Part shown: piece after piece, positions 23,639 to 33,193 of the stretch
How positions within the stretch are numbered: the first letter of the stretch is position 1
Layout: each line of letters starts with the position of its first letter
NCBI GenBank assembly: GCA_913043225.1
Contig: CAJWLU010000002.1
Location: 160,001-224,000, forward strand
Direction of reading: 5' to 3'
DNA length: 64,000 nt
Source of the DNA: an uncultured Acidobacteriota bacterium
Lineage (GTDB): Bacteria; Acidobacteriota; Vicinamibacteria; Vicinamibacterales; UBA8438
Notes under the pieces: model-generated
Seen by the model: only the letters and a program-made list of their open reading frames with translations
What the model was told of the DNA's origin: nothing
Databases searched by the model: none
Position numbers and translations under genes: made by a program

Positions 23639-25480
23639 TCAGGTGCTCGGGCGGAGCCGTGTTTCGGCGCGCATGAGCCCGTCGGTGGCCGTGTCGAAGA
23701 ACGTCTCGAATTGACTGCGGATACGGTCGAGCTTGGCCACCTCGGCGGCATCCGCCTCGGTATCCGGACTGACGATGTAGATGAAGGCCTGGCGGTGCAC
23801 TTTCTCCGACGTGTCGACCGACGGGAACCGCGGTCCTTCGATGTCGATCACGTCCTGGATCACGATGTCCCGTCTGGTGCCGTTGAAGGTGACCCCGACC
23901 TGCGGGGCCGACGTGTTTATCTCGACGGGAATAACGTTGGTCGGTGACTCGACATAGAAGAATGCCGGGACCTCGGTGTCCCGGCGGAGGCCCATCGCGT
24001 ACTGGTCCAGCGCACTGTAGCGCTCAACCGCCGCCACGGTTTCGAACATGCCGCCCCCCTTGTCCTCGATGTCGTTGCCTTCCATCACCGAAGCGTCCGA
24101 GTCGAAGAAGAAGCTCCAGTGGGCGTTAGCACGGCCGAGCAGGGCGGTCGACCGCTGTCGGTCCACGTCACTGAACTCGAAGAATGCAAGCCACCGGTGG
24201 CCGACCTCGTGTGCTAGTACGCCCATGGTGGTGTTCTCGCCCACAATCTTTTCGGCGAGGTCTTCAGAGTATTTGTCCAGCCAGCCCATGACCACGATGC
24301 TGCTGAGCTCCTGGCTGCGAAATTCTGGCGAGACCGGGAACGTCGGCTGGCCGAGTCCCTGGATGCTGTTGGCGACGGTGGTCTCGTAGGCGAACGCGCC
24401 ACCGAAGACGAGAGGCTGGTTCCCAAAGATGATGATCTGGTCGTAGGCGTCAGGGTGTGTCTGGAAGAACTTCTGCGCCACGGCCACGATGTCAAGCTCC
24501 GACTCCCGAGAGAATCGCTCGCCGATCGCGCCGGTCGAGCCGGTGTTCGCCTCTGCCTGACTGAGATCGACCGCATGGAATGTTCCGGTTCGTCCCGGAG
24601 ACACGCCGACGATCGCGTCGAACAGCTCGATGCCTTTGTCGAACGCCATCTCGACCACGCCGTCGGTCAGCAGGCTCGCCTGTACCGTGGTCGTGGCGCT
24701 CATCCCGAAACCGGGGACACGGCACCAGGTAACCGTGGTCCGGTCGGCCAAGGTGGCTGCGAAGACCCCTCCGCTGACGCTCGGGTCGAGGTCGGCCAGG
24801 AAGGGGGAGAGCCGGGGTGGCCCCGAAAGTAGTCGGGAAACGTTCCGAGGCGTGCTGGCGTTGTCACCTTCCTCAAAGGTGAGGTTGCCATCCGAGTTGA
24901 TGAAGAGTGACGAGTGGCTTTCGCCGAAGAATGGGAAGGTGAAGCCCATGGCGAGCGAACTGGTGTCGTCGTCGCCAAGCGTCACCCGGTCGCCAAGGGG
25001 CGAGCGAAACGCGGCCGAGCTCGTTCGGGCCACGTCGTAGCCGCCGCTGTCGTTGGGTGTGAAACGAAGGCCGAGATCGAGCAGGTCGTAGGGGTTGAGG
25101 GCCCGGAACAGGTCACCTTCGTCCTGGAGCACGGCGATGTCGCCGATATCCTCGGTCATCGCGTTGGGGCTCACCGGCGAGAGCTGTCCGTGGGCCAGGG
25201 CAGACCGGTGATTCCAGAGGCTGTCCAGCACGCCCCAAGGCGCATCCTGGTCTATGACGCCGGCCCACTTGTCGGGTCCTCCGGCTGATCGTGCCGCGGT
25301 GCGCAGCTCCACCGCGTCGCACGGGTTCGTATTCGCCGTTGGGGTGCTGGTTGGCGTCTGTGGCGCCCGGGTATCGGAGCCGGAATCACACGCGTGTTGG
25401 ACGCCGCTGGCCAGTACACCCGCCGCCACAATGGCCGTTTTCGTCCAATAGATCACATCGCCGAATATGTCGACGCTCAC
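23639..25480 (-). CDS. Exported protein with NIDO-like region and HExxH zinc-metallopeptidase motif
   Basis: Hydrophobic N-terminus (possible lipobox QHAC), FTFPFFG..FINSDGNLTF..PFLADLDP, LAHEVGHRW..HWS..SVMEG, DQYAMG. Confidence 0.65.
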   Translation of the reverse strand: MSVDIFGDVIYWTKTAIVAAGVLASGVQHACDSGSDTRAPQTPTSTPTANTNPCDAVELRTAARSAGGPDKWAGVIDQDAPWGVLDSLWNHRSALAHGQLSPVSPNAMTEDIGDIAVLQDEGDLFRALNPYDLLDLGLRFTPNDSGGYDVARTSSAAFRSPLGDRVTLGDDDTSSLAMGFTFPFFGESHSSLFINSDGNLTFEEGDNASTPRNVSRLLSGPPRLSPFLADLDPSVSGGVFAATLADRTTVTWCRVPGFGMSATTTVQASLLTDGVVEMAFDKGIELFDAIVGVSPGRTGTFHAVDLSQAEANTGSTGAIGERFSRESELDIVAVAQKFFQTHPDAYDQIIIFGNQPLVFGGAFAYETTVANSIQGLGQPTFPVSPEFRSQELSSIVVMGWLDKYSEDLAEKIVGENTTMGVLAHEVGHRWLAFFEFSDVDRQRSTALLGRANAHWSFFFDSDASVMEGNDIEDKGGGMFETVAAVERYSALDQYAMGLRRDTEVPAFFYVESPTNVIPVEINTSAPQVGVTFNGTRRDIVIQDVIDIEGPRFPSVDTSEKVHRQAFIYIVSPDTEADAAEVAKLDRIRSQFETFFDTATDGLMRAETRLRPST

Positions 25481-26076
25481 CGTAGCCGTGCTTCCAGCAG
25501 GTCAAGGGCGGCACCCGAGTCGCTTGTGGCCAGTACGCTGAAGCGTTCCCGCTCATCGATTTCCTGGGTGAGAGACCAATCATCGTCTGGTCCCATGGTG
25601 CTGAGCAGACGTTCGAACGTCGGCCTGAACGCCTCCATCGTCTCGCCACGGTTGGGTGCCCGCAGCCGGTCGTTGGCTAGGCATTCGAGTTGGTCTCCGC
25701 GGAAGCGGACGCGCCCGTCGAGAGTATCGTTCGTCTCGAGCAGTCGGCCAGCCTTCACGAGGGTCCGGGCCGCGGCATGAAGGCGGTCCGCCAACTCTCC
25801 CTCCTGATCGGCGCGCCTCGCGTACTGGAGGCCGAGACGCCCGCCTGACTGTTCGATCGCGTAGTAACCCTCGTGGGTTGCCAGCAGGACACTGGGCCCG
25901 CTCGTCATGTGGGAGTAGTCGGCCACGTCAATGAGCAGTCCGTCCACGGCCGATGTCTGGATCCAACGATGGAATACGGGGATTACGTCTCGCGGATCGA
26001 GCACCGTTTCCTCGTCGAGAAAGATCTTGAGTGCGATGCGTTGCAAGGTCCCAATCCTCGCGGCTGCGTCTGTCAC
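25477..26076 (-). CDS. Hypothetical protein coupled to sulfite reductase
   Basis: GTG 26076 overlaps the reductase stop (GTGA); 199 aa with FHRWIQ, LIDVADYSH, NDRLRAPN; its stop overlaps the next ATG. Confidence 0.7.
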   Translation of the reverse strand: MTDAAARIGTLQRIALKIFLDEETVLDPRDVIPVFHRWIQTSAVDGLLIDVADYSHMTSGPSVLLATHEGYYAIEQSGGRLGLQYARRADQEGELADRLHAAARTLVKAGRLLETNDTLDGRVRFRGDQLECLANDRLRAPNRGETMEAFRPTFERLLSTMGPDDDWSLTQEIDERERFSVLATSDSGAALDLLEARLR

Positions 26077-28355
26077 TGCACCCCCCCGGGTGAGGGCGCC
26101 GAACCGGCCTTGGGTGGGGAAGGCATAGACGCTAGGCGCGCCTGACAGGCGTGGGTCGCTTCGAGGAAGAGCTGCGCCTCTTCGATCAGCCGCCGCGCCG
26201 TATCGCGTTCGGTGGCAGGGCCCGGCTGTTCGTGTCTTCTGAACAAGTAGTTGGCGAACTTGCCCCTCGCGTACTTGTCGAAGAACACCTCGGTGTCGTA
26301 GAACCGGGTCCGGAACTCCATGACGATCTGTGTTGGTTCGTCGGAGATGTCGATGAACTCGGTCTTGATCAGCCCCTTGGCCGCCTGCAGCATCGCGCCG
26401 TACGCCAGCTGGTCGGCGCGCGTTGGGTCGTTCTCCTCGAGTGCGAGTTGCGCCTCGAAGACCTGGCTTTCGGCACCAGCCAGATCGAACTCGGTGAGCG
26501 AGACCACCTCTCCGGCGCATTCACCCACGCCCATGTCGCCGATGCCGAATTCGCGTGGGTCGCCCCAGTCGCGGAAGAAGTCTGGCCTCTCTTCCCGACC
26601 AGGAATCGCCATCAGATCCTTCAGGATCTCCTTTAGCGTTCGCTTGCCGATCCGGCTGGCAAAGTCGTAGAAGGTCTCGTTCTCCAGACGTTCCTCCACG
26701 AAACGGCTGGTAACCCGCCGAACCACTTCTGGAATGTTCTTGGATGGGACCGCCCCGATGGCCAGGCCATAGCTTCCGCCGTTTTCGACCCACTTACCTC
26801 CCAGGAGTACCTGGAAGTGGGGCACCACGTGACCACTGGCGTGTCGACTGACCCCGTAAAACCCGAGGTCGCTGATGTGGTGCTGTCCGCAGGAGTTGAA
26901 GCAGCCGCTGACTTTGATCCGCAGGTTTCGTGCGGACTCGTCAAGGGAGCTCATCTGATCGACGAGCTGCCGCTCGAGTTCCGCGGCTAGTCCGCGCGAC
27001 GACGCAATACCGAGCTTGCACGTATCGGTGCCTGGGCACGCCGTGATATCGGCAACGGTGCCAGCGCCCGGTTGCGCGAGGCCAATGGAGTCCAGCTCGC
27101 GGTGGAGCTCCGGCAGGTCCGCCTCCCGCACCCAACGCAGCACGATGTTCTGCTCGACCGTCGTTCGGATCGCGTCACCCACGAAGCGCCTGGCGAGGTC
27201 AGCCAGGCGTCGAAGCTGCCAACCAGACAGGTCGCCAAGTGAGAGCGTGATCGTGGCGACGACATAGCCGGCTTGCCGCTGGCGATAGACGTTGGTGCCT
27301 ACCCAGGTCTGGAAGGCACCGGAGTTCGGCGCGGTTTCGAGCGGAGCGCCCGCATGGAGCGGCCGTTCGCCCTGGGCAGGCACGTCGTCCAGATAGGCGG
27401 ACCACCGCTCGTCAGGCGCAAGCGCGTCGCGCTCTTCCTTCACGAGGCGACGAAACTCGTCGATGCCCAGTTGGGCGACCAGGAACTTGATGCGCGCCCG
27501 GGCACGGTTGCGCTTCTCGCCCAGCCTGGCGAAGACGCGTGAGATGGCTTGCAGCGTCGGCAGCACTTCTTCCTCGGTCAGGAAGGGGTCGAACAGCTTC
27601 GCTTCGTGCGGTACTGCGCCCAGGCCGCCGCCCACGTAAACCTCGAAGCCACGTTCGATGGTCCCGTTGACCTCCCGCGTCACCGCAATGCCGCCAAAGT
27701 CGTGCATGTTGACGAGGCCGCAGGCGTGCTCTCGGCAGCCGGAGAAGGCGACCTTGAACTTTCTCCCGAAGTCCTGGGTATCGGGGTGTCCGAGGAGGAA
27801 ATGCATGGACGCTTCGGCGTAGGGCGTGACGTCGAAGGTCTCGTCCCGGCAGACGCCGGATAACGGACAGGCCGTGACGTTGCGCACGGTGTTACCGCAC
27901 GCTTCACGCGTGGTGATACCGACGGCGGCCAGTCGGCGCATCAGCTCCGGGGTGTCGTCGATATGGACGAAGTGCAGCTGGATGTCCTGGCGGGTCGTTA
28001 TGTGGCAGACGCCGTCTGAGTACTCCTCGGACAGATTGGCCAGGGTGTCCATCTGGTCCGCCGTGAGGCCGCCAAACGGGATCTTGATCCGCTGCATACC
28101 TGGAGCGTCCCAGACCGTGTCCGGCCCCTTGGTTTGCCCATCCGAAGGAAAGGGGAGCAGCTTCACGCCGGTCCCGTCGTTGCGCTGGCCGTTGTCGTAG
28201 CGTTGCCCGTACGCTCCCCGCCGAAGTCTGGTTTCAGCGAACACCTTGTCGTCGATCTTGCCCTGGCGCTTCAGTGCAATCTGGTTCTCGTAGGTATCGA
28301 TCTCTCTCCCGAGGTCGTCCGGGATCCGAGCGCCTAATGTGTCTTTCCAGCTCAT
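26073..28355 (-). CDS. sir: Siroheme-[4Fe-4S] sulfite/nitrite reductase hemoprotein with C-terminal extension
   Basis: HITTRQDIQLH, EACGNTVRN, RKFKVAFSGC, ACPGTDTCKLG, SGCFNSCGQH; context (cysH, Cys leader) favours sulfite. Confidence 0.88.
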   Translation of the reverse strand: MSWKDTLGARIPDDLGREIDTYENQIALKRQGKIDDKVFAETRLRRGAYGQRYDNGQRNDGTGVKLLPFPSDGQTKGPDTVWDAPGMQRIKIPFGGLTADQMDTLANLSEEYSDGVCHITTRQDIQLHFVHIDDTPELMRRLAAVGITTREACGNTVRNVTACPLSGVCRDETFDVTPYAEASMHFLLGHPDTQDFGRKFKVAFSGCREHACGLVNMHDFGGIAVTREVNGTIERGFEVYVGGGLGAVPHEAKLFDPFLTEEEVLPTLQAISRVFARLGEKRNRARARIKFLVAQLGIDEFRRLVKEERDALAPDERWSAYLDDVPAQGERPLHAGAPLETAPNSGAFQTWVGTNVYRQRQAGYVVATITLSLGDLSGWQLRRLADLARRFVGDAIRTTVEQNIVLRWVREADLPELHRELDSIGLAQPGAGTVADITACPGTDTCKLGIASSRGLAAELERQLVDQMSSLDESARNLRIKVSGCFNSCGQHHISDLGFYGVSRHASGHVVPHFQVLLGGKWVENGGSYGLAIGAVPSKNIPEVVRRVTSRFVEERLENETFYDFASRIGKRTLKEILKDLMAIPGREERPDFFRDWGDPREFGIGDMGVGECAGEVVSLTEFDLAGAESQVFEAQLALEENDPTRADQLAYGAMLQAAKGLIKTEFIDISDEPTQIVMEFRTRFYDTEVFFDKYARGKFANYLFRRHEQPGPATERDTARRLIEEAQLFLEATHACQARLASMPSPPKAGSAPSPGGVQ

Positions 28356-28356
28356 G

Positions 28357-29175
28357 TCAGCCCTTTCCCTCGGCGGTCTGTGCCGCGTCGGTCGCCGGTG
28401 GACTGGCAAGTACCGTCGCCAGGTCGACCACCGCCCCGATAATGATCGTCCCGGTGGCGTCTTGCGGATGTGGACTGGCTGTGCGCCCTAGTTGCTCCAG
28501 GCTGCCCGTCCAGGTATGCGCCGCCGGGGTGGCGGCGTCAGAGGCGATGGCCACGCTCGTATCCGGAGGCCAGCCCCGGTCGAGCAGGCATCGCGCGATG
28601 GTCCGCCGCTGCGTCAGGCCCATTAGCACCACCACGGTGGCGCTGTCTGGCGCTAGTGATTCGAGTATCGGTGCGTAGCTGCTCTCATCGTGCCCGGAGA
28701 CGACGACGAAGCCGGAGGCGAGTCCGCGATGGGTCACCGGGATGCCGGCCAGCGCCGGCGCGGCGATCGCTGCGCTCACTCCCTGCAAGACCTCGAACGG
28801 GATTCCCGCGGCGCGTAGCGCAAGGCCCTCTTCGCCACCGCGTCCTAGTACAAACGGGTCTCCTCCCTTGAGACGCACCACGTGGCGTCCCCGTCGCGAG
28901 GCACGGATCATCACCCGGATGATCGTGTTCTGGGGGACCGAGCGCCGTCCCGCGCGCTTGCCGACCGAGAAGCACTGGGCCCGGGAGGCGAGTTCGATCA
29001 CCTCTGGCGAGACCAGGGCATCGTAGAGTACCAACTCCGCGGCTCGCAGGCGCTCGGCGGCGCCGAGCGTCAGCAGCGCGCGGTCGCCCGGTCCAGCGCC
29101 GACAAGCGAGACGAGTCCTCTGGAGCCGTTGGGTGTCATGGTCGTCGTTTGGCGCTGACGTATCGTTCGGGACAC
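28357..29175 (-). CDS. cobA: Uroporphyrinogen-III C-methyltransferase
   Basis: LVGAGPGD, VLYDALV, VRLKGGDPFVLGRGGEE, AGIPVTHRG; start may be ATG 29139. Confidence 0.93.
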   Translation of the reverse strand: MSRTIRQRQTTTMTPNGSRGLVSLVGAGPGDRALLTLGAAERLRAAELVLYDALVSPEVIELASRAQCFSVGKRAGRRSVPQNTIIRVMIRASRRGRHVVRLKGGDPFVLGRGGEEGLALRAAGIPFEVLQGVSAAIAAPALAGIPVTHRGLASGFVVVSGHDESSYAPILESLAPDSATVVVLMGLTQRRTIARCLLDRGWPPDTSVAIASDAATPAAHTWTGSLEQLGRTASPHPQDATGTIIIGAVVDLATVLASPPATDAAQTAEGKG

Positions 29176-29178
29176 GTG

Positions 29179-29754
29179 TCAGTGCTGTCGATCTTCGTAG
29201 AGACCGGCCAGCGCGCGCAAGAGCAGGGGCCGGCGTTCGTCCATGGGGACCTCGTTCGCCATCCACTGTCTGCGCTGTTCCTTGGCCGTGGACAGCCACC
29301 GCGCCACTTCTTTTTCCGGGAGCAGCGCCTCGAGTGCCTGTCGAATCAGACCGGCCAGCGCCGGCGCCTGCCCATCGGTCGAGATGGCCACCGTTACGCC
29401 TCCCCGCCGGACGACGCCTCCCAGGTAGACCGTGGCATTAGGGGGGTCGTCGACGGCGTTCACGAAGAGCTGGCGTGCCTCGGCCTCTCGTGCCACGTCT
29501 CGGTTGACTTCCGGAGGCGCCGCGGCCACGACCATCCACGCGTCATCGAGGTCGGTCGGCTGAAAGCGACGCTTGATGAGCTCGGCTTCTGCCGTTCGGA
29601 TTTCAGGCACCATCTCGGGGGCGACCACAACTATATCCGCGCCGGCGGCCGTCAGTGCGACCAGCTTGGAGGCGGCGACGGGTCCCCCACCGACGACGAG
29701 TACCCGTCGCCCGGTCAGTTTCAGGAATGCCGGGAAGAGCGTGGTCGCACTCAT
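29179..29754 (-). CDS. Precorrin-2 dehydrogenase/sirohydrochlorin ferrochelatase (CysG N-terminal type)
   Basis: LFPAFLKL, VVGGGPVA, VNAVDDP, VAISTDGQAPALA. Confidence 0.9.
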   Translation of the reverse strand: MSATTLFPAFLKLTGRRVLVVGGGPVAASKLVALTAAGADIVVVAPEMVPEIRTAEAELIKRRFQPTDLDDAWMVVAAAPPEVNRDVAREAEARQLFVNAVDDPPNATVYLGGVVRRGGVTVAISTDGQAPALAGLIRQALEALLPEKEVARWLSTAKEQRRQWMANEVPMDERRPLLLRALAGLYEDRQH

Positions 29755-29802
29755 GGCCGGTGCCCGAGGGCCGGGAGTGGGGCAGCGGAGAGAAAAACGG
29801 GA

Positions 29803-30567
29803 TCAGACGGTCGAGCGAGCCTCCTGTGCTTCGCTCGACGTCGACGGCGGTTCGTGGAGGCCACACTCGGTCTTCGACGTCCCACGCCACCGGCCAGCCC
29901 GGTCGTCTTCTCCGGCGGCCACCCGGCCGGTGCAAGGAAGACAACCGATGCTCGGGTAGCCCTGATCATGCAGCGGATTGTAGGGCACGTCGTGCCGCAG
30001 CAGGTGTTGCCAGGTGTCCTTCTTGGTCCACCGCACGAGCGGGTTGACCTTCTCGAGGCCGAACTTAGCATCCATTTCCACGACGAGAGTATTGGCGCGA
30101 GCCGCGGTCTGGTCCCGGCGAATGGCGGTGATCCAGGCGTCGACTCCCGCCAGTTGACTTTCCAGCGGGCTCACCTTCCGCTTGGCGCAGCACAGATCCG
30201 GCTCGCGCGTCCAAAGCTCCGGGCCATGCGCGGCCGCCTGCACCTCGACGGTCTGTTCCGGTGACACGCGCCGGATCGTCACCCCGTAGCGCGACTCGAG
30301 ACGCTGCCAGAGGTCGTAGGTCTCCGGGAAGAGCAGTCCCGTGTCGAGTGTGAACATGTCGATCGGCAGTTGGTGACGACCGATCAGGTCGATCAGGACG
30401 CAGCCCTCCGCGCCGAAACCGGTGGCGAAGGTTAGCCGCGAGCCGTAGCGGTCAGCCGCCCACTTCAGGATCTCGAGCGGAGCGGCTTCTTCGAGTTCCC
30501 GCGCCGGGTCGATCAACTCGGCGGGGTCGAAGGTGGCCGTGTCCGGGCGAGTCAGCGTGTCAGTCAT
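29803..30567 (-). CDS. cysH: Adenylyl-/phosphoadenylyl-sulfate reductase (Fe-S, APS-reductase type)
   Basis: LDTGLLFPET, CCAKRK, GYPSIGCLPCT, RAGRW, ECGLH; CC plus CxxC indicate the Fe-S type. Confidence 0.93.
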   Translation of the reverse strand: MTDTLTRPDTATFDPAELIDPARELEEAAPLEILKWAADRYGSRLTFATGFGAEGCVLIDLIGRHQLPIDMFTLDTGLLFPETYDLWQRLESRYGVTIRRVSPEQTVEVQAAAHGPELWTREPDLCCAKRKVSPLESQLAGVDAWITAIRRDQTAARANTLVVEMDAKFGLEKVNPLVRWTKKDTWQHLLRHDVPYNPLHDQGYPSIGCLPCTGRVAAGEDDRAGRWRGTSKTECGLHEPPSTSSEAQEARSTV

Positions 30568-30605
30568 TACTGTTCCAGTCGGTCGTTTCGAGAACGCGGT
30601 CGAAG

Positions 30606-30641
30606 AAAAAAAGCCCGGGAGCCGTTGGGCCCCCGAGCTTT
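30606..30641 (-). terminator. Attenuator terminator in the cysH leader
   Basis: - strand AGCTCGGGGGCC-CAAC-GGCTCCCGGGCT 12-bp stem (two G-U pairs) with a 7-T run starting at its last base, 39 nt before the cysH ATG. Confidence 0.88.
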
Positions 30642-30681
30642 GGTCTTTCGCGTTGATGCTTTCGTTCTTATGAGTGATGCC

Positions 30682-30771
30682 TCAGCGCGACACGACCGTC
30701 AGCTCGGGGGCCCAGGAGGCCTCCGGACAACAGCAACAACAAGTGATAGTCGTGTATGCGCGGGCGCTCAA
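30682..30771 (-). CDS. Poly-cysteine leader peptide (M)SARAYTTITCCCCCPEASWAPELTVVSR
   Basis: TGT TGT TGC TGT TGT at 30741-30727; TTG start 30771 (alternative in-frame ATG 30813); TGA 30684-30682; contains the antiterminator strand 30714-30701. Confidence 0.85.
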   Translation of the reverse strand: MSARAYTTITCCCCCPEASWAPELTVVSR

Positions 30772-30780
30772 AACGCCAAT

Positions 30781-30809
30781 GTTGTACCCCTTCGCTCCTG
30801 ATTCGTCAA
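30781..30809 (-). promoter_or_regulatory. Candidate sigma70 promoter for the leader-cysH operon
   Basis: - strand TTGACG-17 nt-TACAAC, ending 9 nt before the leader TTG. Confidence 0.55.
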
Positions 30810-30835
30810 GCATGGTTGTGACCTGTCTGGTTGAG

Positions 30836-33193
30836 CTACCTCAAATACCCCAGGCTGCGGAGCCGTTCTAGCTCCTCAGATGACAGCGTGCCGGTCGACT
30901 CGTCGTCGGTGGGGAGTTGTCCGGCTCTAGTGCGCCGGCGCCACCGTTCAAGCTCGGCCCGCAGCTGCTCGACGACACCGGGGTGTATCGCTGCCAGGTC
31001 GGTCTGGTTCATTGGGTCAGCTTGGTGGTCGTAGAGCTCGTACTCTGGTTCGTCGGCCGACCGCTGCTCGTTGTGGATCAGGCGCCACCCGTCCAGCACA
31101 AGCGCCACCGACGCATGCCGGTCTTCGATGCCAGCCGCCTCGCGGGTGTGTTCCTCAGCGACTGCGGGGACCTCTAGCCATTGAGACGCGTCGGTCGCTC
31201 CTCCCGTTCCGGTCGTGGTCAGCAGCGGCAACAGGCTCTGGCCTTGCGCTTCCTCAGGCACCGGTAGACCGCTCAGCTCGAGAAGTGTCGGCATGAGGTC
31301 GATACTCCGCACTGTCTCTGACACCACCTGGCCGCCAGGAATCTTCCCCGGACCCCACAGCAGCAGCGGTATCTTGGTCTGCTCTCCGTAGACCGTGTGT
31401 CCATGCCAGGATTCTCCGTGCTCAAGGAATTCCTCACCGTGGTCGCTCAGCACCGCCACGACCACGCGGTCTGCCAGGCCGCTGGACTCGAGTCGCTCGA
31501 CCAGACGCCCGATTTCCGCGTCCATGCCACGGATGGAACCGTCGTACCAAGCCCGGCGATAGTCCATGAACGGGCCGACGTCGACGCTGGCCGCGCGGAT
31601 TTGGGCCCGCGTTGGCATGACCTGACCCCGGAGTAGCGGGCTCTCGATCTCACTCCGAATGTCAGCCATGCGAGCCTGGTGAGCTGCCCGTGCCTTCGGG
31701 TCGGCCCACCAGGTGTCGTACGGAGGTCGAGGTTCGAACGGACTATGGGGATCGAACACGTGCAGGAAGGCGAAGAACGGCGCGCCTTTACGACGATCGA
31801 GCCAGTCCAGCAGTCGGTCTACGTACTCGCGCGCCGACTTACTCCGCTTTGTTCCGGTGCGTGACGTGGCTTCGTGAAGCTCTTCGAAGCCCTGGTGCAG
31901 ATTGGTGTCGGCGCCGGTGAAGTTGACCGACGAGAACGACACCGTCGCGTAGCCGGCCGTGCGGTAGGCTTCCGCCAGCGTGACCGCGGCGCTGGGCAGC
32001 CGATGGGGTACGTCGAGCACGCCATGCGCAAGCGGATACAGCGAGGTGAGGATCGACGGGGCCGACGCTTTCGTCCAAGTGGCTTGCGCCAGGGCGTCGT
32101 CGAACCGGGCGCCGCCGGCGGCCAGTCTCGAGAGGGCGGGCGTGGTCTTGCGCTCGTAGCCATAGAGGTCCATGTGGTCGGGCCGGAGGGTGTCGGCCAT
32201 GACCACGATGACCCCTTGGGGCGTCTCCTGCACCGGCGCGCGCCGGCGGATGACCGGGGCGCCCCAGAGCCCGATCACGGCCGGTTCCGGCGCTTCCACC
32301 GAAAGGGCCAGCGTTATCTGACGACCCGCCACGGCCGTGAGGTCGACGGCGGCCGGCTCCCACCGGTCGGGGGTGGTGAGGGTTTGGCGGAACAGCTCAA
32401 TCCGGTCGGTGTCCGACTCGGCCACCACGCGGAATGTAGTCGGCGTCGGAGTCATCGTCCCCAGCGCGAGGTCGAGCCAGGACCCGTCCGGGATGGTGAC
32501 CGGTACCCGGAAGGTCTCGGGTGACTTGGCGACGACTGACTCGCGAAAAACGTTGGACTGACCTCGCCAGGCTACGCCGCTTGGGGTCTCGGCGAGATAC
32601 TCGCGGTCGAACACCAGCCGGACCGAGGCGATCTCGAACTCGGCGCCGGCGACATCGCTCGGGCGGATGAATACCCTGTGGATAGCGGACGACGGTCTGG
32701 CGTCCTTGGCTCGGATCTCGTAGGTCCGCAGCTCGTCGCCAGGGATCAAAGGACTCGAGAGTGCCCATGCCTCGTCGTCACGGACGCCTTCCAGGTCGAA
32801 GGTCCCTCGGCTGCGGAACTCGACCTCCAGAGTGGTGCCCTCTGAGACTTGGATCTCGATCTCGACCGTGTGAAGTCGGTCAGTGCGGTGGCCATCGTCC
32901 GGCCATTCCGCATAGACCATGCCCGTAGGGTCCGCACTGCGGCCACGGAGGCGACCTTGCCGCACCACGACGTCCTCGAGCCCGCCGCCTTCCTGCCAAG
33001 CCGTGGCCTCGTCCTCCACTGCGAATCGCCAGAGTGCTCGTGGCGGGGAGGATGCAGCCGGGGTGTCGGAGATAGTCGCCGGCCCGCCGCCGACCAGATC
33101 TACCAGGTGAATCGCGGTCGGAAGTCGGTCCGGCTGACCGCCGCAGGCGGCGCCGAAGAGGATGATGACGATGGCCGCACTGACGCGGGGCAC
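30836..33193 (-). CDS. Sulfatase-like hydrolase/transferase lipoprotein (no formylglycine motif)
   Basis: Lipobox GAAC; ~320-aa beta-rich N-region; DTLRPDH, WTKASA in place of CxPxR, FDPH, SDHGE; C-terminal ERLRSLGYL. Confidence 0.85.
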   Translation of the reverse strand: MPRVSAAIVIILFGAACGGQPDRLPTAIHLVDLVGGGPATISDTPAASSPPRALWRFAVEDEATAWQEGGGLEDVVVRQGRLRGRSADPTGMVYAEWPDDGHRTDRLHTVEIEIQVSEGTTLEVEFRSRGTFDLEGVRDDEAWALSSPLIPGDELRTYEIRAKDARPSSAIHRVFIRPSDVAGAEFEIASVRLVFDREYLAETPSGVAWRGQSNVFRESVVAKSPETFRVPVTIPDGSWLDLALGTMTPTPTTFRVVAESDTDRIELFRQTLTTPDRWEPAAVDLTAVAGRQITLALSVEAPEPAVIGLWGAPVIRRRAPVQETPQGVIVVMADTLRPDHMDLYGYERKTTPALSRLAAGGARFDDALAQATWTKASAPSILTSLYPLAHGVLDVPHRLPSAAVTLAEAYRTAGYATVSFSSVNFTGADTNLHQGFEELHEATSRTGTKRSKSAREYVDRLLDWLDRRKGAPFFAFLHVFDPHSPFEPRPPYDTWWADPKARAAHQARMADIRSEIESPLLRGQVMPTRAQIRAASVDVGPFMDYRRAWYDGSIRGMDAEIGRLVERLESSGLADRVVVAVLSDHGEEFLEHGESWHGHTVYGEQTKIPLLLWGPGKIPGGQVVSETVRSIDLMPTLLELSGLPVPEEAQGQSLLPLLTTTGTGGATDASQWLEVPAVAEEHTREAAGIEDRHASVALVLDGWRLIHNEQRSADEPEYELYDHQADPMNQTDLAAIHPGVVEQLRAELERWRRRTRAGQLPTDDESTGTLSSEELERLRSLGYLR

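Follow-up and report, generated by a model that had tools for sequence, protein, structure and literature searches.

How might an uncultured marine acidobacterium adjust the expression of its sulfate-assimilation genes to its supply of cysteine (Cys)? The question is raised by a stretch of 64,000 nucleotides (nt) from a member of the Vicinamibacterales, Acidobacteriota (assembly GCA_913043225.1, contig CAJWLU010000002.1, positions 160,001 to 224,000; hereafter the window, by which we mean this whole stretch), in which a short open reading frame (ORF) containing five consecutive Cys codons lies between a promoter and a terminator hairpin, directly upstream of cysH. An earlier note on this DNA had read the arrangement as a leader in which a ribosome stalled at the Cys codons favours an antiterminator over the terminator. 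This reading is supported by 87 related loci, and we conclude that the element is very probably a ribosome-mediated, cysteine-sensing transcription attenuator before sulfate-assimilation genes, which would sense cysteine through the supply of charged tRNA-Cys. The anatomy of such an attenuator, its conservation, its covariation and its sulfur-gene context are all directly observed. The parts on which the argument turns are the following:

30809-30804, minus strand: -35 hexamer TTGACG, from the sequence
30786-30781, minus strand: -10 hexamer TACAAC, from the sequence, with a 17-nt spacer to the -35 hexamer
30771-30682, minus strand: leader ORF of 29 codons, from TTG (30771-30769) to TGA (30684-30682), encoding MSARAYTTITCCCCCPEASWAPELTVVSR
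30741-30727, minus strand: five consecutive Cys codons, TGT TGT TGC TGT TGT, the regulatory codons, from the sequence
30728-30702, minus strand: hairpin A (anti-antiterminator, '1:2'), 5' arm 30728-30717, 3' arm 30713-30702, -14.1 kcal/mol
30714-30701, minus strand: antiterminator 5' strand (strand 2), UGGGCCCCCGAGCU, from inverted-repeat search and fold
30697-30642, minus strand: central hairpin B, outer helix GGUC (30697-30694) with GACC (30645-30642)
30639-30626, minus strand: antiterminator 3' strand, which is also the terminator 5' arm (strand 3), AGCUCGGGGGCCCA, from inverted repeat and fold
30641-30606, minus strand: intrinsic terminator, stem 30641-30610, loop 30627-30624, U run 30612-30606

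The ORF and its five Cys codons lie exactly where the earlier note had placed them, and an inverted-repeat search recovered the proposed pairing, with 30626-30639 and 30701-30714 complementary over 14 nt at 100%. The terminator was likewise found in its proposed position; its hairpin has 14 pairs, 9 of them G-C, a loop of 4 and a predicted energy of -25.5 kcal/mol, and 39 nt separate its run of seven U from the cysH ATG at 30567. The TTGACG-17-TACAAC promoter is also present, with a gap of 9 nt between TACAAC and the TTG of the ORF. Besides the antiterminator and terminator, two further conserved parts are present that the earlier note had overlooked. Hairpin A starts at the last Cys codon and sequesters antiterminator strand 2, while hairpin B brings both antiterminator strands together and, in the window's subfamily, carries the stop codon inside its 5' arm. 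Folding of 30830-30590 gave a minimum free energy (MFE) of -98.5 kcal/mol (z -4.3; 0 of 200 shuffles equally stable), and the 14-base-pair (bp) antiterminator is present in the MFE structure. The 64 kb of the window contain a single run of five TGY codons, and none of 100 dinucleotide shuffles has one. Terminator-like sites, on the other hand, are as frequent in shuffled sequence (1 found versus 1.4 expected in a simple scan). Since scans for promoters and terminators are weak in this way, the strength of the case comes from conservation instead.

A DNA search of 40 related genomes and the window's own returned 17 further loci at E <= 5e-4, with similarity that begins exactly at the Cys run and stops at the U run. 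One genome per species (185,579 species) was then scanned with a degenerate pattern based on the Cys run, on hairpin A and on the first part of hairpin B. This gave 108 loci, of which 60 possess the full layout, defined as at least three Cys codons (one has C-S-C-C) with a T run 77-93 nt beyond; by construction these 60 are conserved at TGYTGY, GG and CCC...GCYGMCGGTC. Titles were available for 80 of the pattern loci (28 had none), and every full-layout locus among them is titled Vicinamibacterales, Vicinamibacteria, Vicinamibacteraceae or Acidobacteria. Twelve of the loci are identical to loci of the first search, by which the family of the window is placed in this order. The other 48 matches (Streptomyces, Marinobacter, Hahella and others) were rejected as chance, having the pattern's two TGY only or no T run at the right distance; loci L077, L110 and L094 were rejected on inspection as chance matches of the same kind. 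A covariance model (R1) matched 59 of 151 genomes of the order Vicinamibacterales at E <= 0.001, including 12/12 in the window's family and 11/12, 8/12 and 6/11 in three others, the weakest of these matches scoring like plain terminators. Among 29 model loci that were fetched, 27 have at least three consecutive Cys codons and two have interrupted Cys-rich stretches. The layout of promoter, start codon near the 5' end, three to seven Cys codons, hairpins A and B and terminator is thus found in 87 Vicinamibacterales loci, and the covariance-model search found one copy only in the window's own genome.

The promoter geometry claimed for the window proved to be a family trait. In the promoter and codon counts, from which L155 and L164 with their interrupted Cys runs were excluded, 80/83 distinct leaders have TTGAC no more than 100 nt 5' of the Cys run, with a spacer of 17-19 nt and a -10 consensus of TA(C/G)AAT. 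In-frame start codons in 76 leaders are GTG (36), ATG (35) and TTG (5), the TTG of the window aligning with a GTG in the same-genus relative L002, and in 51 of the 76 the gap from -10 to start codon is 7-10 nt. With so short a gap, a ribosome-binding site does not fit in, and the start codon falls on the expected 5' end or a few nucleotides from it; judged from these sequences the leader ORF is probably leaderless or nearly so, as had been suggested. A second in-frame ATG (30813-30811, minus strand) lies just 5' of the -35 hexamer, 22 nt past the stop codon of the upstream sulfatase gene, and would yield a 43-codon ORF on read-through transcripts from that gene. This upstream ATG is common only to the window and L002.

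Conservation of the Cys run in relatives, which the earlier note had named as a check, was found: the run comprises three to seven codons in 81/83 distinct leaders and two in the other two, and it varies by whole codons and by exchange of TGT and TGC. TGT makes up 70% of run codons (271/387) versus 32% in the window's long frames. Past the run, the reading frame differs by subfamily while the nucleotides stay the same, so that one group reads ..PEA.GAPELTVVSR-stop and another, one position over, reads ..GPRADGRTALH.. with a stop codon that comes later than in the first group. Because the frame changes while the nucleotides are conserved, the downstream part appears to be conserved as RNA and not as coding sequence. 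This pattern argues that only the Cys codons, together with start and stop, are selected as codons, and that the rest is kept as RNA.

The stems of the leader covary, a point that the earlier note had likewise named as a check. A consensus structure computed with RNAalifold from 18 sequences consists of two hairpins, corresponding to hairpin A and the terminator. Alignments made with MAFFT (A1-A3) were dropped, as the terminator region was structurally inconsistent in them, with a one-column offset between subfamilies, and a covariance-model alignment (A4; 88 matches comprising 87 leaders and one spurious, 86 distinct rows) was used in their place. In A4 the terminator-state ('off') structure is 96.6% paired, a figure flattered by the kinship of the sequences and by the fitting of the alignment to this very structure; with the partners displaced by 1-3 columns, the paired share of cells is 27-66%. 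Changes on both sides are seen for 17/24 pairs of the 'off' structure, and 0/500 column shuffles match it, a count that, like the other shuffle counts across the family, overstates significance because the relatives are not independent. By element, 4/4 pairs of the hairpin A core helix, 3/4 pairs of the hairpin B outer helix (95.2% paired across the 86 distinct rows) and 7/12 pairs of the terminator helix (98.5% paired across the family) have changes on both sides. The terminator is the best-conserved part of the leader.

The antiterminator, the central claim of the earlier note and also its weakest, was assessed separately. In the window, the perfect 14-bp pairing of strand 2 with strand 3 stands as claimed (-28 kcal/mol, z -4.9 versus shuffled partner strands), but no relative has the perfect form: their pairings comprise 7-12 bp and contain mismatches (median -18.7 kcal/mol), although the best duplex falls in the same register in 59/65 distinct leaders. 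This conserved register lies directly outside hairpin B, on which the duplex would stack. Cognate strand pairs form more stable duplexes than non-cognate ones (means of -18.4 versus -16.2 kcal/mol; 0/5000 permutations as low), and in fixed alignment columns the antiterminator helix is 75.9% paired versus 28-50% when slid by 1-3 columns. Its outermost pair (columns 56:200) is C-G in 40 rows, U-A in 35, U-G in 4 and other or unpaired in 6. The shared column T5, which belongs to the terminator 5' arm, covaries with its terminator partner too, giving the triplets U/A/U in 35 rows and C/G/C in 31 (the window's row is shifted by one column in the terminator 5' arm and is therefore counted as U/G/C). 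Since both triplet states occur within family f1, and again within f5, there has been more than one switch between them. On this comparison one strand obeys two partners, which is the expectation for mutually exclusive pairings. At two standing mismatches the shared strand of the window carries U and G, bases that pair either way, and the cost of this solution is G-U pairs in the terminator (-25.5 kcal/mol). Across leaders the energies are about -14 kcal/mol for hairpin A, -10 to -29 kcal/mol for the antiterminator and -16 to -33 kcal/mol for the terminator.

The genes behind the leader provide a further line of evidence. The window's candidate operon and its upstream neighbour are as follows:

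29803-30567, minus strand: cysH (PAPS/APS reductase), the first regulated gene; PF01507, E 6.8e-45
29179-29754, minus strand: sirC-like siroheme synthase N-terminal domain protein; PF13241 and PF14824
28357-29175, minus strand: uroporphyrinogen-III methyltransferase (cobA/sirA type); PF00590
26073-28409, minus strand: sulfite reductase; PF01077 and PF03460; longest ORF taken, overlapping the preceding gene
33193-30836, minus strand: sulfatase gene upstream of the leader; PF00884, 785 amino acids (aa)

The first downstream gene was scanned at 31 of 76 loci, near-identical N-termini and wrong-looking frames being left out, and it is sulfur-related in all 31 proteins: a sirC-like siroheme synthase domain (12 loci), TauE/SafE (8), DUF2061 (7, one of them fused to PAPS reductase), PAPS reductase (CysH) alone (3) and Cons_hypoth698 (1). 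The remaining N-termini fall by eye into the same classes. Small DUF2061 membrane proteins of 75-99 aa stand first behind the leader at L003, L004, L014, L075, L093 and L105, and the protein at L006:459-1496 (346 aa) is a fusion of DUF2061 with PAPS reductase. This suggests that DUF2061 has a role in sulfate assimilation.

From the anatomy of the leader we infer the following course of ribosome stalling, RNA folding and cysteine response. Transcription would start about 3 nt before the 29-codon ORF, and a ribosome would load at the very 5' end. Strand 2 would be locked in hairpin A (30728-30702) in the 'off' form, and the terminator, consisting of 30641-30610 and the U run, would fold and stop transcription after about 170 nt. 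In the 'on' form, this strand (30714-30701) would instead pair with the terminator 5' arm (30639-30626) in a helix stacked on hairpin B, no terminator would form, and polymerase would proceed into cysH, the sirC-like gene, cobA and sir. When Cys-tRNA is scarce, the ribosome would wait on the last Cys codons and cover about 12 nt downstream, which correspond to the 5' arm of hairpin A; strand 2 would then be free to pair with strand 3 once hairpin B has closed, giving the 'on' form. When cysteine is ample, the ribosome would reach the UGA in the 5' arm of hairpin B; hairpin A would re-form behind the ribosome, B could not close and the terminator would win. The earlier note had the ribosome cover 30714-30701 under ample cysteine, and on this point it is to be corrected: the segment predicted to be covered is instead the hairpin B 5' arm, at about 30699-30670.

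Equilibrium sketches of this choice were made with a second folding model, in which the transcripts of 65 leaders were cut before the terminator 3' arm. With the ribosome placed on the last Cys codon, strand 3 was mostly paired to strand 2 in 65/65 leaders; the count was 60/65 for a ribosome on the first Cys codon, 50/65 for no ribosome and 23/65 for a ribosome at the stop codon.

Contigs 90-99% identical to the window were present in four RNA runs carrying a marine metagenome label. One metatranscriptome contig of 176 nt, which departs from the window in 6 places, spans 30602-30774, running from the expected transcription start (7 nt past the -10 hexamer) to 4 nt beyond the U run, and its depth of 30.8 is the highest of any piece compared, cysH pieces from the same run having depths of 5.9-15. 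A second RNA study holds contigs stopping at 30605 and 30612, and a third holds a contig bridging the terminator (30560-30709). As assemblies from related strains, these contigs cannot prove transcript ends or levels; they hint weakly at the existence of both a short, terminated leader RNA and a read-through RNA. In run X16, RNA contigs leave 30305-30601 uncovered, and nothing was drawn from this gap. Separately, 12 runs labelled marine, seawater or marine plankton metagenome contain about one third of the words sampled from 29000-32000.

Several observations weigh against the attenuator, in addition to the relatedness of the leaders, the bases fixed by the search pattern and the strain origin of the RNA contigs, as described above. 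The -10 hexamer of the window, TACAAC, is without the final T, because of which the promoter is absent from the output of a simple promoter scan, and the TTG start is a minority choice (5/76 leaders). In 16 relatives the duplex of strands 2 and 3 has energies of -10 to -22 kcal/mol and gains little over pairing with a shuffled strand 3, with z between +0.2 and -2.9. Full-length equilibrium folding of 17 leaders in four ribosome states reproduced no switch and is not used as support: the window RNA preferred the antiterminator in every modelled state (free, stalled or at the stop codon), and the 16 relatives favoured the terminator in every state. As the equilibrium is independent of ribosome state, the decision would have to be kinetic, set by folding order, as in trp. 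In the cut-transcript model, moreover, free and stalled states lie only modestly apart (50/65 versus 65/65). In the subfamilies with a later stop codon, the modelled ribosome at the stop masks no switch strand, and these leaders are left unexplained by masking at the stop.

These points have to be set against what other explanations would require. One possibility, which we regard as improbable, is that the poly-Cys ORF attenuates translation or acts via Rho, as in mycobacteria, so that the ribosome-binding site of the next gene is unmasked and the terminator is incidental. The expression signals of acidobacteria have been little studied. According to Canestrari et al. 2020 (10.1101/834739), leaderless poly-Cys ORFs of mycobacteria mask the Shine-Dalgarno sequence of the next gene, and termination was excluded as their mode of action. 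However, in a fold of 30774-30540 the Cys run and the segment that leads up to the cysH ATG are not paired with each other, whereas a G+C-rich hairpin with a U run recurs at a fixed distance in all 87 loci and covaries. The downstream genes and their start regions vary from locus to locus, while the terminator does not.

Alternatively, the ORF might encode a functional cysteine-rich micropeptide with a metal or redox function, the terminator setting the ratio of peptide mRNA to operon mRNA. That the ORF is conserved, has its own promoter and is apparently abundant as short RNA would suit such a role, to which we nevertheless assign very little probability: outside the Cys run the peptide is not conserved, its N-terminus being variable and its C-terminus read in different frames, the run itself varies between three and seven codons and uses the rarer codon, and the association with genes of sulfur assimilation is invariable.

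Elsewhere, sulfur genes are controlled by RNAs such as the S-box, and in the present leaders both hairpins, A and B, and the terminator/antiterminator pair show nucleotide-level conservation, as would be expected of a riboswitch or a protein-binding leader for a sulfur metabolite, for which translation of the ORF would be irrelevant. We consider this scarcely probable. A search of 29500-32000 against Rfam at a permissive threshold gave only two chance matches (E 3 and 7), far below gathering scores, and such an RNA would leave unexplained why the Cys run changes codon-wise, why an in-frame start follows the -10 hexamer and why the stop codon always precedes the terminator. A chance juxtaposition, in which the ORF has no meaning and the hairpin is the terminator of the sulfatase gene, located on the same strand with its end 22 nt short of the alternative ATG, has next to no probability, for although terminator-like sites are common in shuffles, a promoter sits between the sulfatase stop and the terminator, the run of five Cys codons is absent from all 100 shuffles, and the whole unit recurs beside other upstream neighbours in loci that, with 86 distinct rows, are not assembly duplicates of one sequence.

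The enteric leaders trpL, hisL, leuL, thrL and pheL combine an ORF containing tandem codons with a terminator/antiterminator switch. The Vicinamibacterales attenuator follows the same logic with energies in similar order, hairpin A resembling the trp 1:2 element, and it possesses the features of this class: tandem cognate codons, an intrinsic terminator, an antiterminator that shares a strand with it and a disruptable 1:2 pairing. It differs from the enteric attenuators, with which it has no sequence relationship, in its amino acid, in being apparently leaderless without room for a Shine-Dalgarno sequence, in its additional hairpin at the stop codon and in its occurrence in Acidobacteriota. 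With the mycobacterial ORFs it shares a leaderless arrangement, consecutive Cys codons before sulfur or cysteine genes and, by inference in our case, stalling at Cys codons as the sensor. Those devices are translational; here, a conserved terminator competes with an antiterminator, and the Cys run is not predicted to pair with the cysH start region. Canestrari et al. 2020 state that they are aware of no earlier cysteine attenuation mediated by an upstream ORF (uORF).

The earlier note knew of no described Cys attenuator with an intrinsic terminator in this kind of organism. For Acidobacteria, no such element was found in the full-text literature, subscription-only papers lying outside its coverage, and the element is a family found across an order and not a single case; elsewhere, one has been predicted. 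Brewer et al. 2021 (PMC8632094) present the uORFC-8-2 motif, upstream of cysS in Rhodobacterales, as a predicted tandem-Cys uORF with an intrinsic terminator. As a predicted Cys-sensing transcription attenuator it is the closest in output, but its Cys codons, two in number and at about positions 14-15, are part of the first stem, and it differs in its gene (cysS), its hosts (alphaproteobacteria) and its structure; here the Cys run lies before the first stem, and cysS is never the first gene among the 31 scanned. The Rfam search of 29500-32000 gave no match to uORFC-8-2, the presence of this motif in Rfam itself being unchecked. Leader peptides with Cys runs before cys operons of Mycobacterium and P. 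acnes and before cbs of B. longum are reported by Seliverstov et al. 2005 (PMC1262725), where they are without a conserved terminator hairpin and Rho is invoked, in contrast to the leader family described here, of which the terminator is the best-conserved part. Taken together, the principle is textbook, while the amino acid, the leaderless design, the phylum and the regulon appear to be new in print as far as searched.

To our knowledge, cysteine was long without a classical attenuator, and the only experimentally studied Cys-codon leaders are mycobacterial and act on translation. If the cysteine attenuator proposed here is correct, sulfur assimilation would be a further pathway for which the trp/his logic was recruited, here on a leaderless transcript and in a phylum about whose gene regulation almost nothing is known. 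The leader would then be a compact, searchable marker of cysteine-controlled genes, would point to DUF2061, TauE-like and Cons_hypoth698 membrane proteins in sulfate or sulfite handling, and would offer a natural cysteine-responsive expression switch. A broader proposal is plausible but tentative: that in Vicinamibacterales the leader, which may have look-alikes in other parts of the phylum, may define a hitherto undescribed cysteine regulon in which attenuation is driven from leaderless mRNA, the first ribosome loading at the 5' end directly behind RNA polymerase; that it may mark DUF2061, TauE-type and Cons_hypoth698 membrane proteins for assimilatory sulfur metabolism; and that the perfect antiterminator of the window may be a lineage-specific retuning to higher read-through.

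Beyond the order, 151 genomes sampled over the phylum yielded nine with covariance-model matches of 27-34 bits, which is the level of plain terminators. Among 13 loci examined from these matches, an ORF with a Cys run followed by a T run was seen only in L181 (genome G187, another family of the phylum) and L182 (genome G029, of the same order, about 300 nt from the match). Their short ORFs are divergent, with C-C-C-S-C or C-C-R-P-S-C-C-C followed by a G+C-rich hairpin and a T run, and each probably represents either a distant form of this device or an independent one. The next-best model matches in the window's own genome (28.2, 26.9 and 16.3 bits) were rejected as ordinary gene-end terminators without Cys codons. 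At G000 C28:23956-24073, C8:85772-85839 and C21:13625-13702, gene-end terminators have a CCGGG-rich G+C stem and 5-8 U; given terminators of this same style at gene ends, canonical intrinsic terminators seem to be in regular use in this acidobacterium.

In the sulfatase upstream of the leader (30836-33193), the Pfam domain runs from residue 328 on, and about 320 N-terminal residues are without a domain match. Directly 3' of the sulfite reductase gene, on the minus strand, lie two ORFs, at 23639-25480 (613 aa) and 25477-26520 (347 aa), that gave no Pfam match and may be part of the same operon as sulfite reductase.

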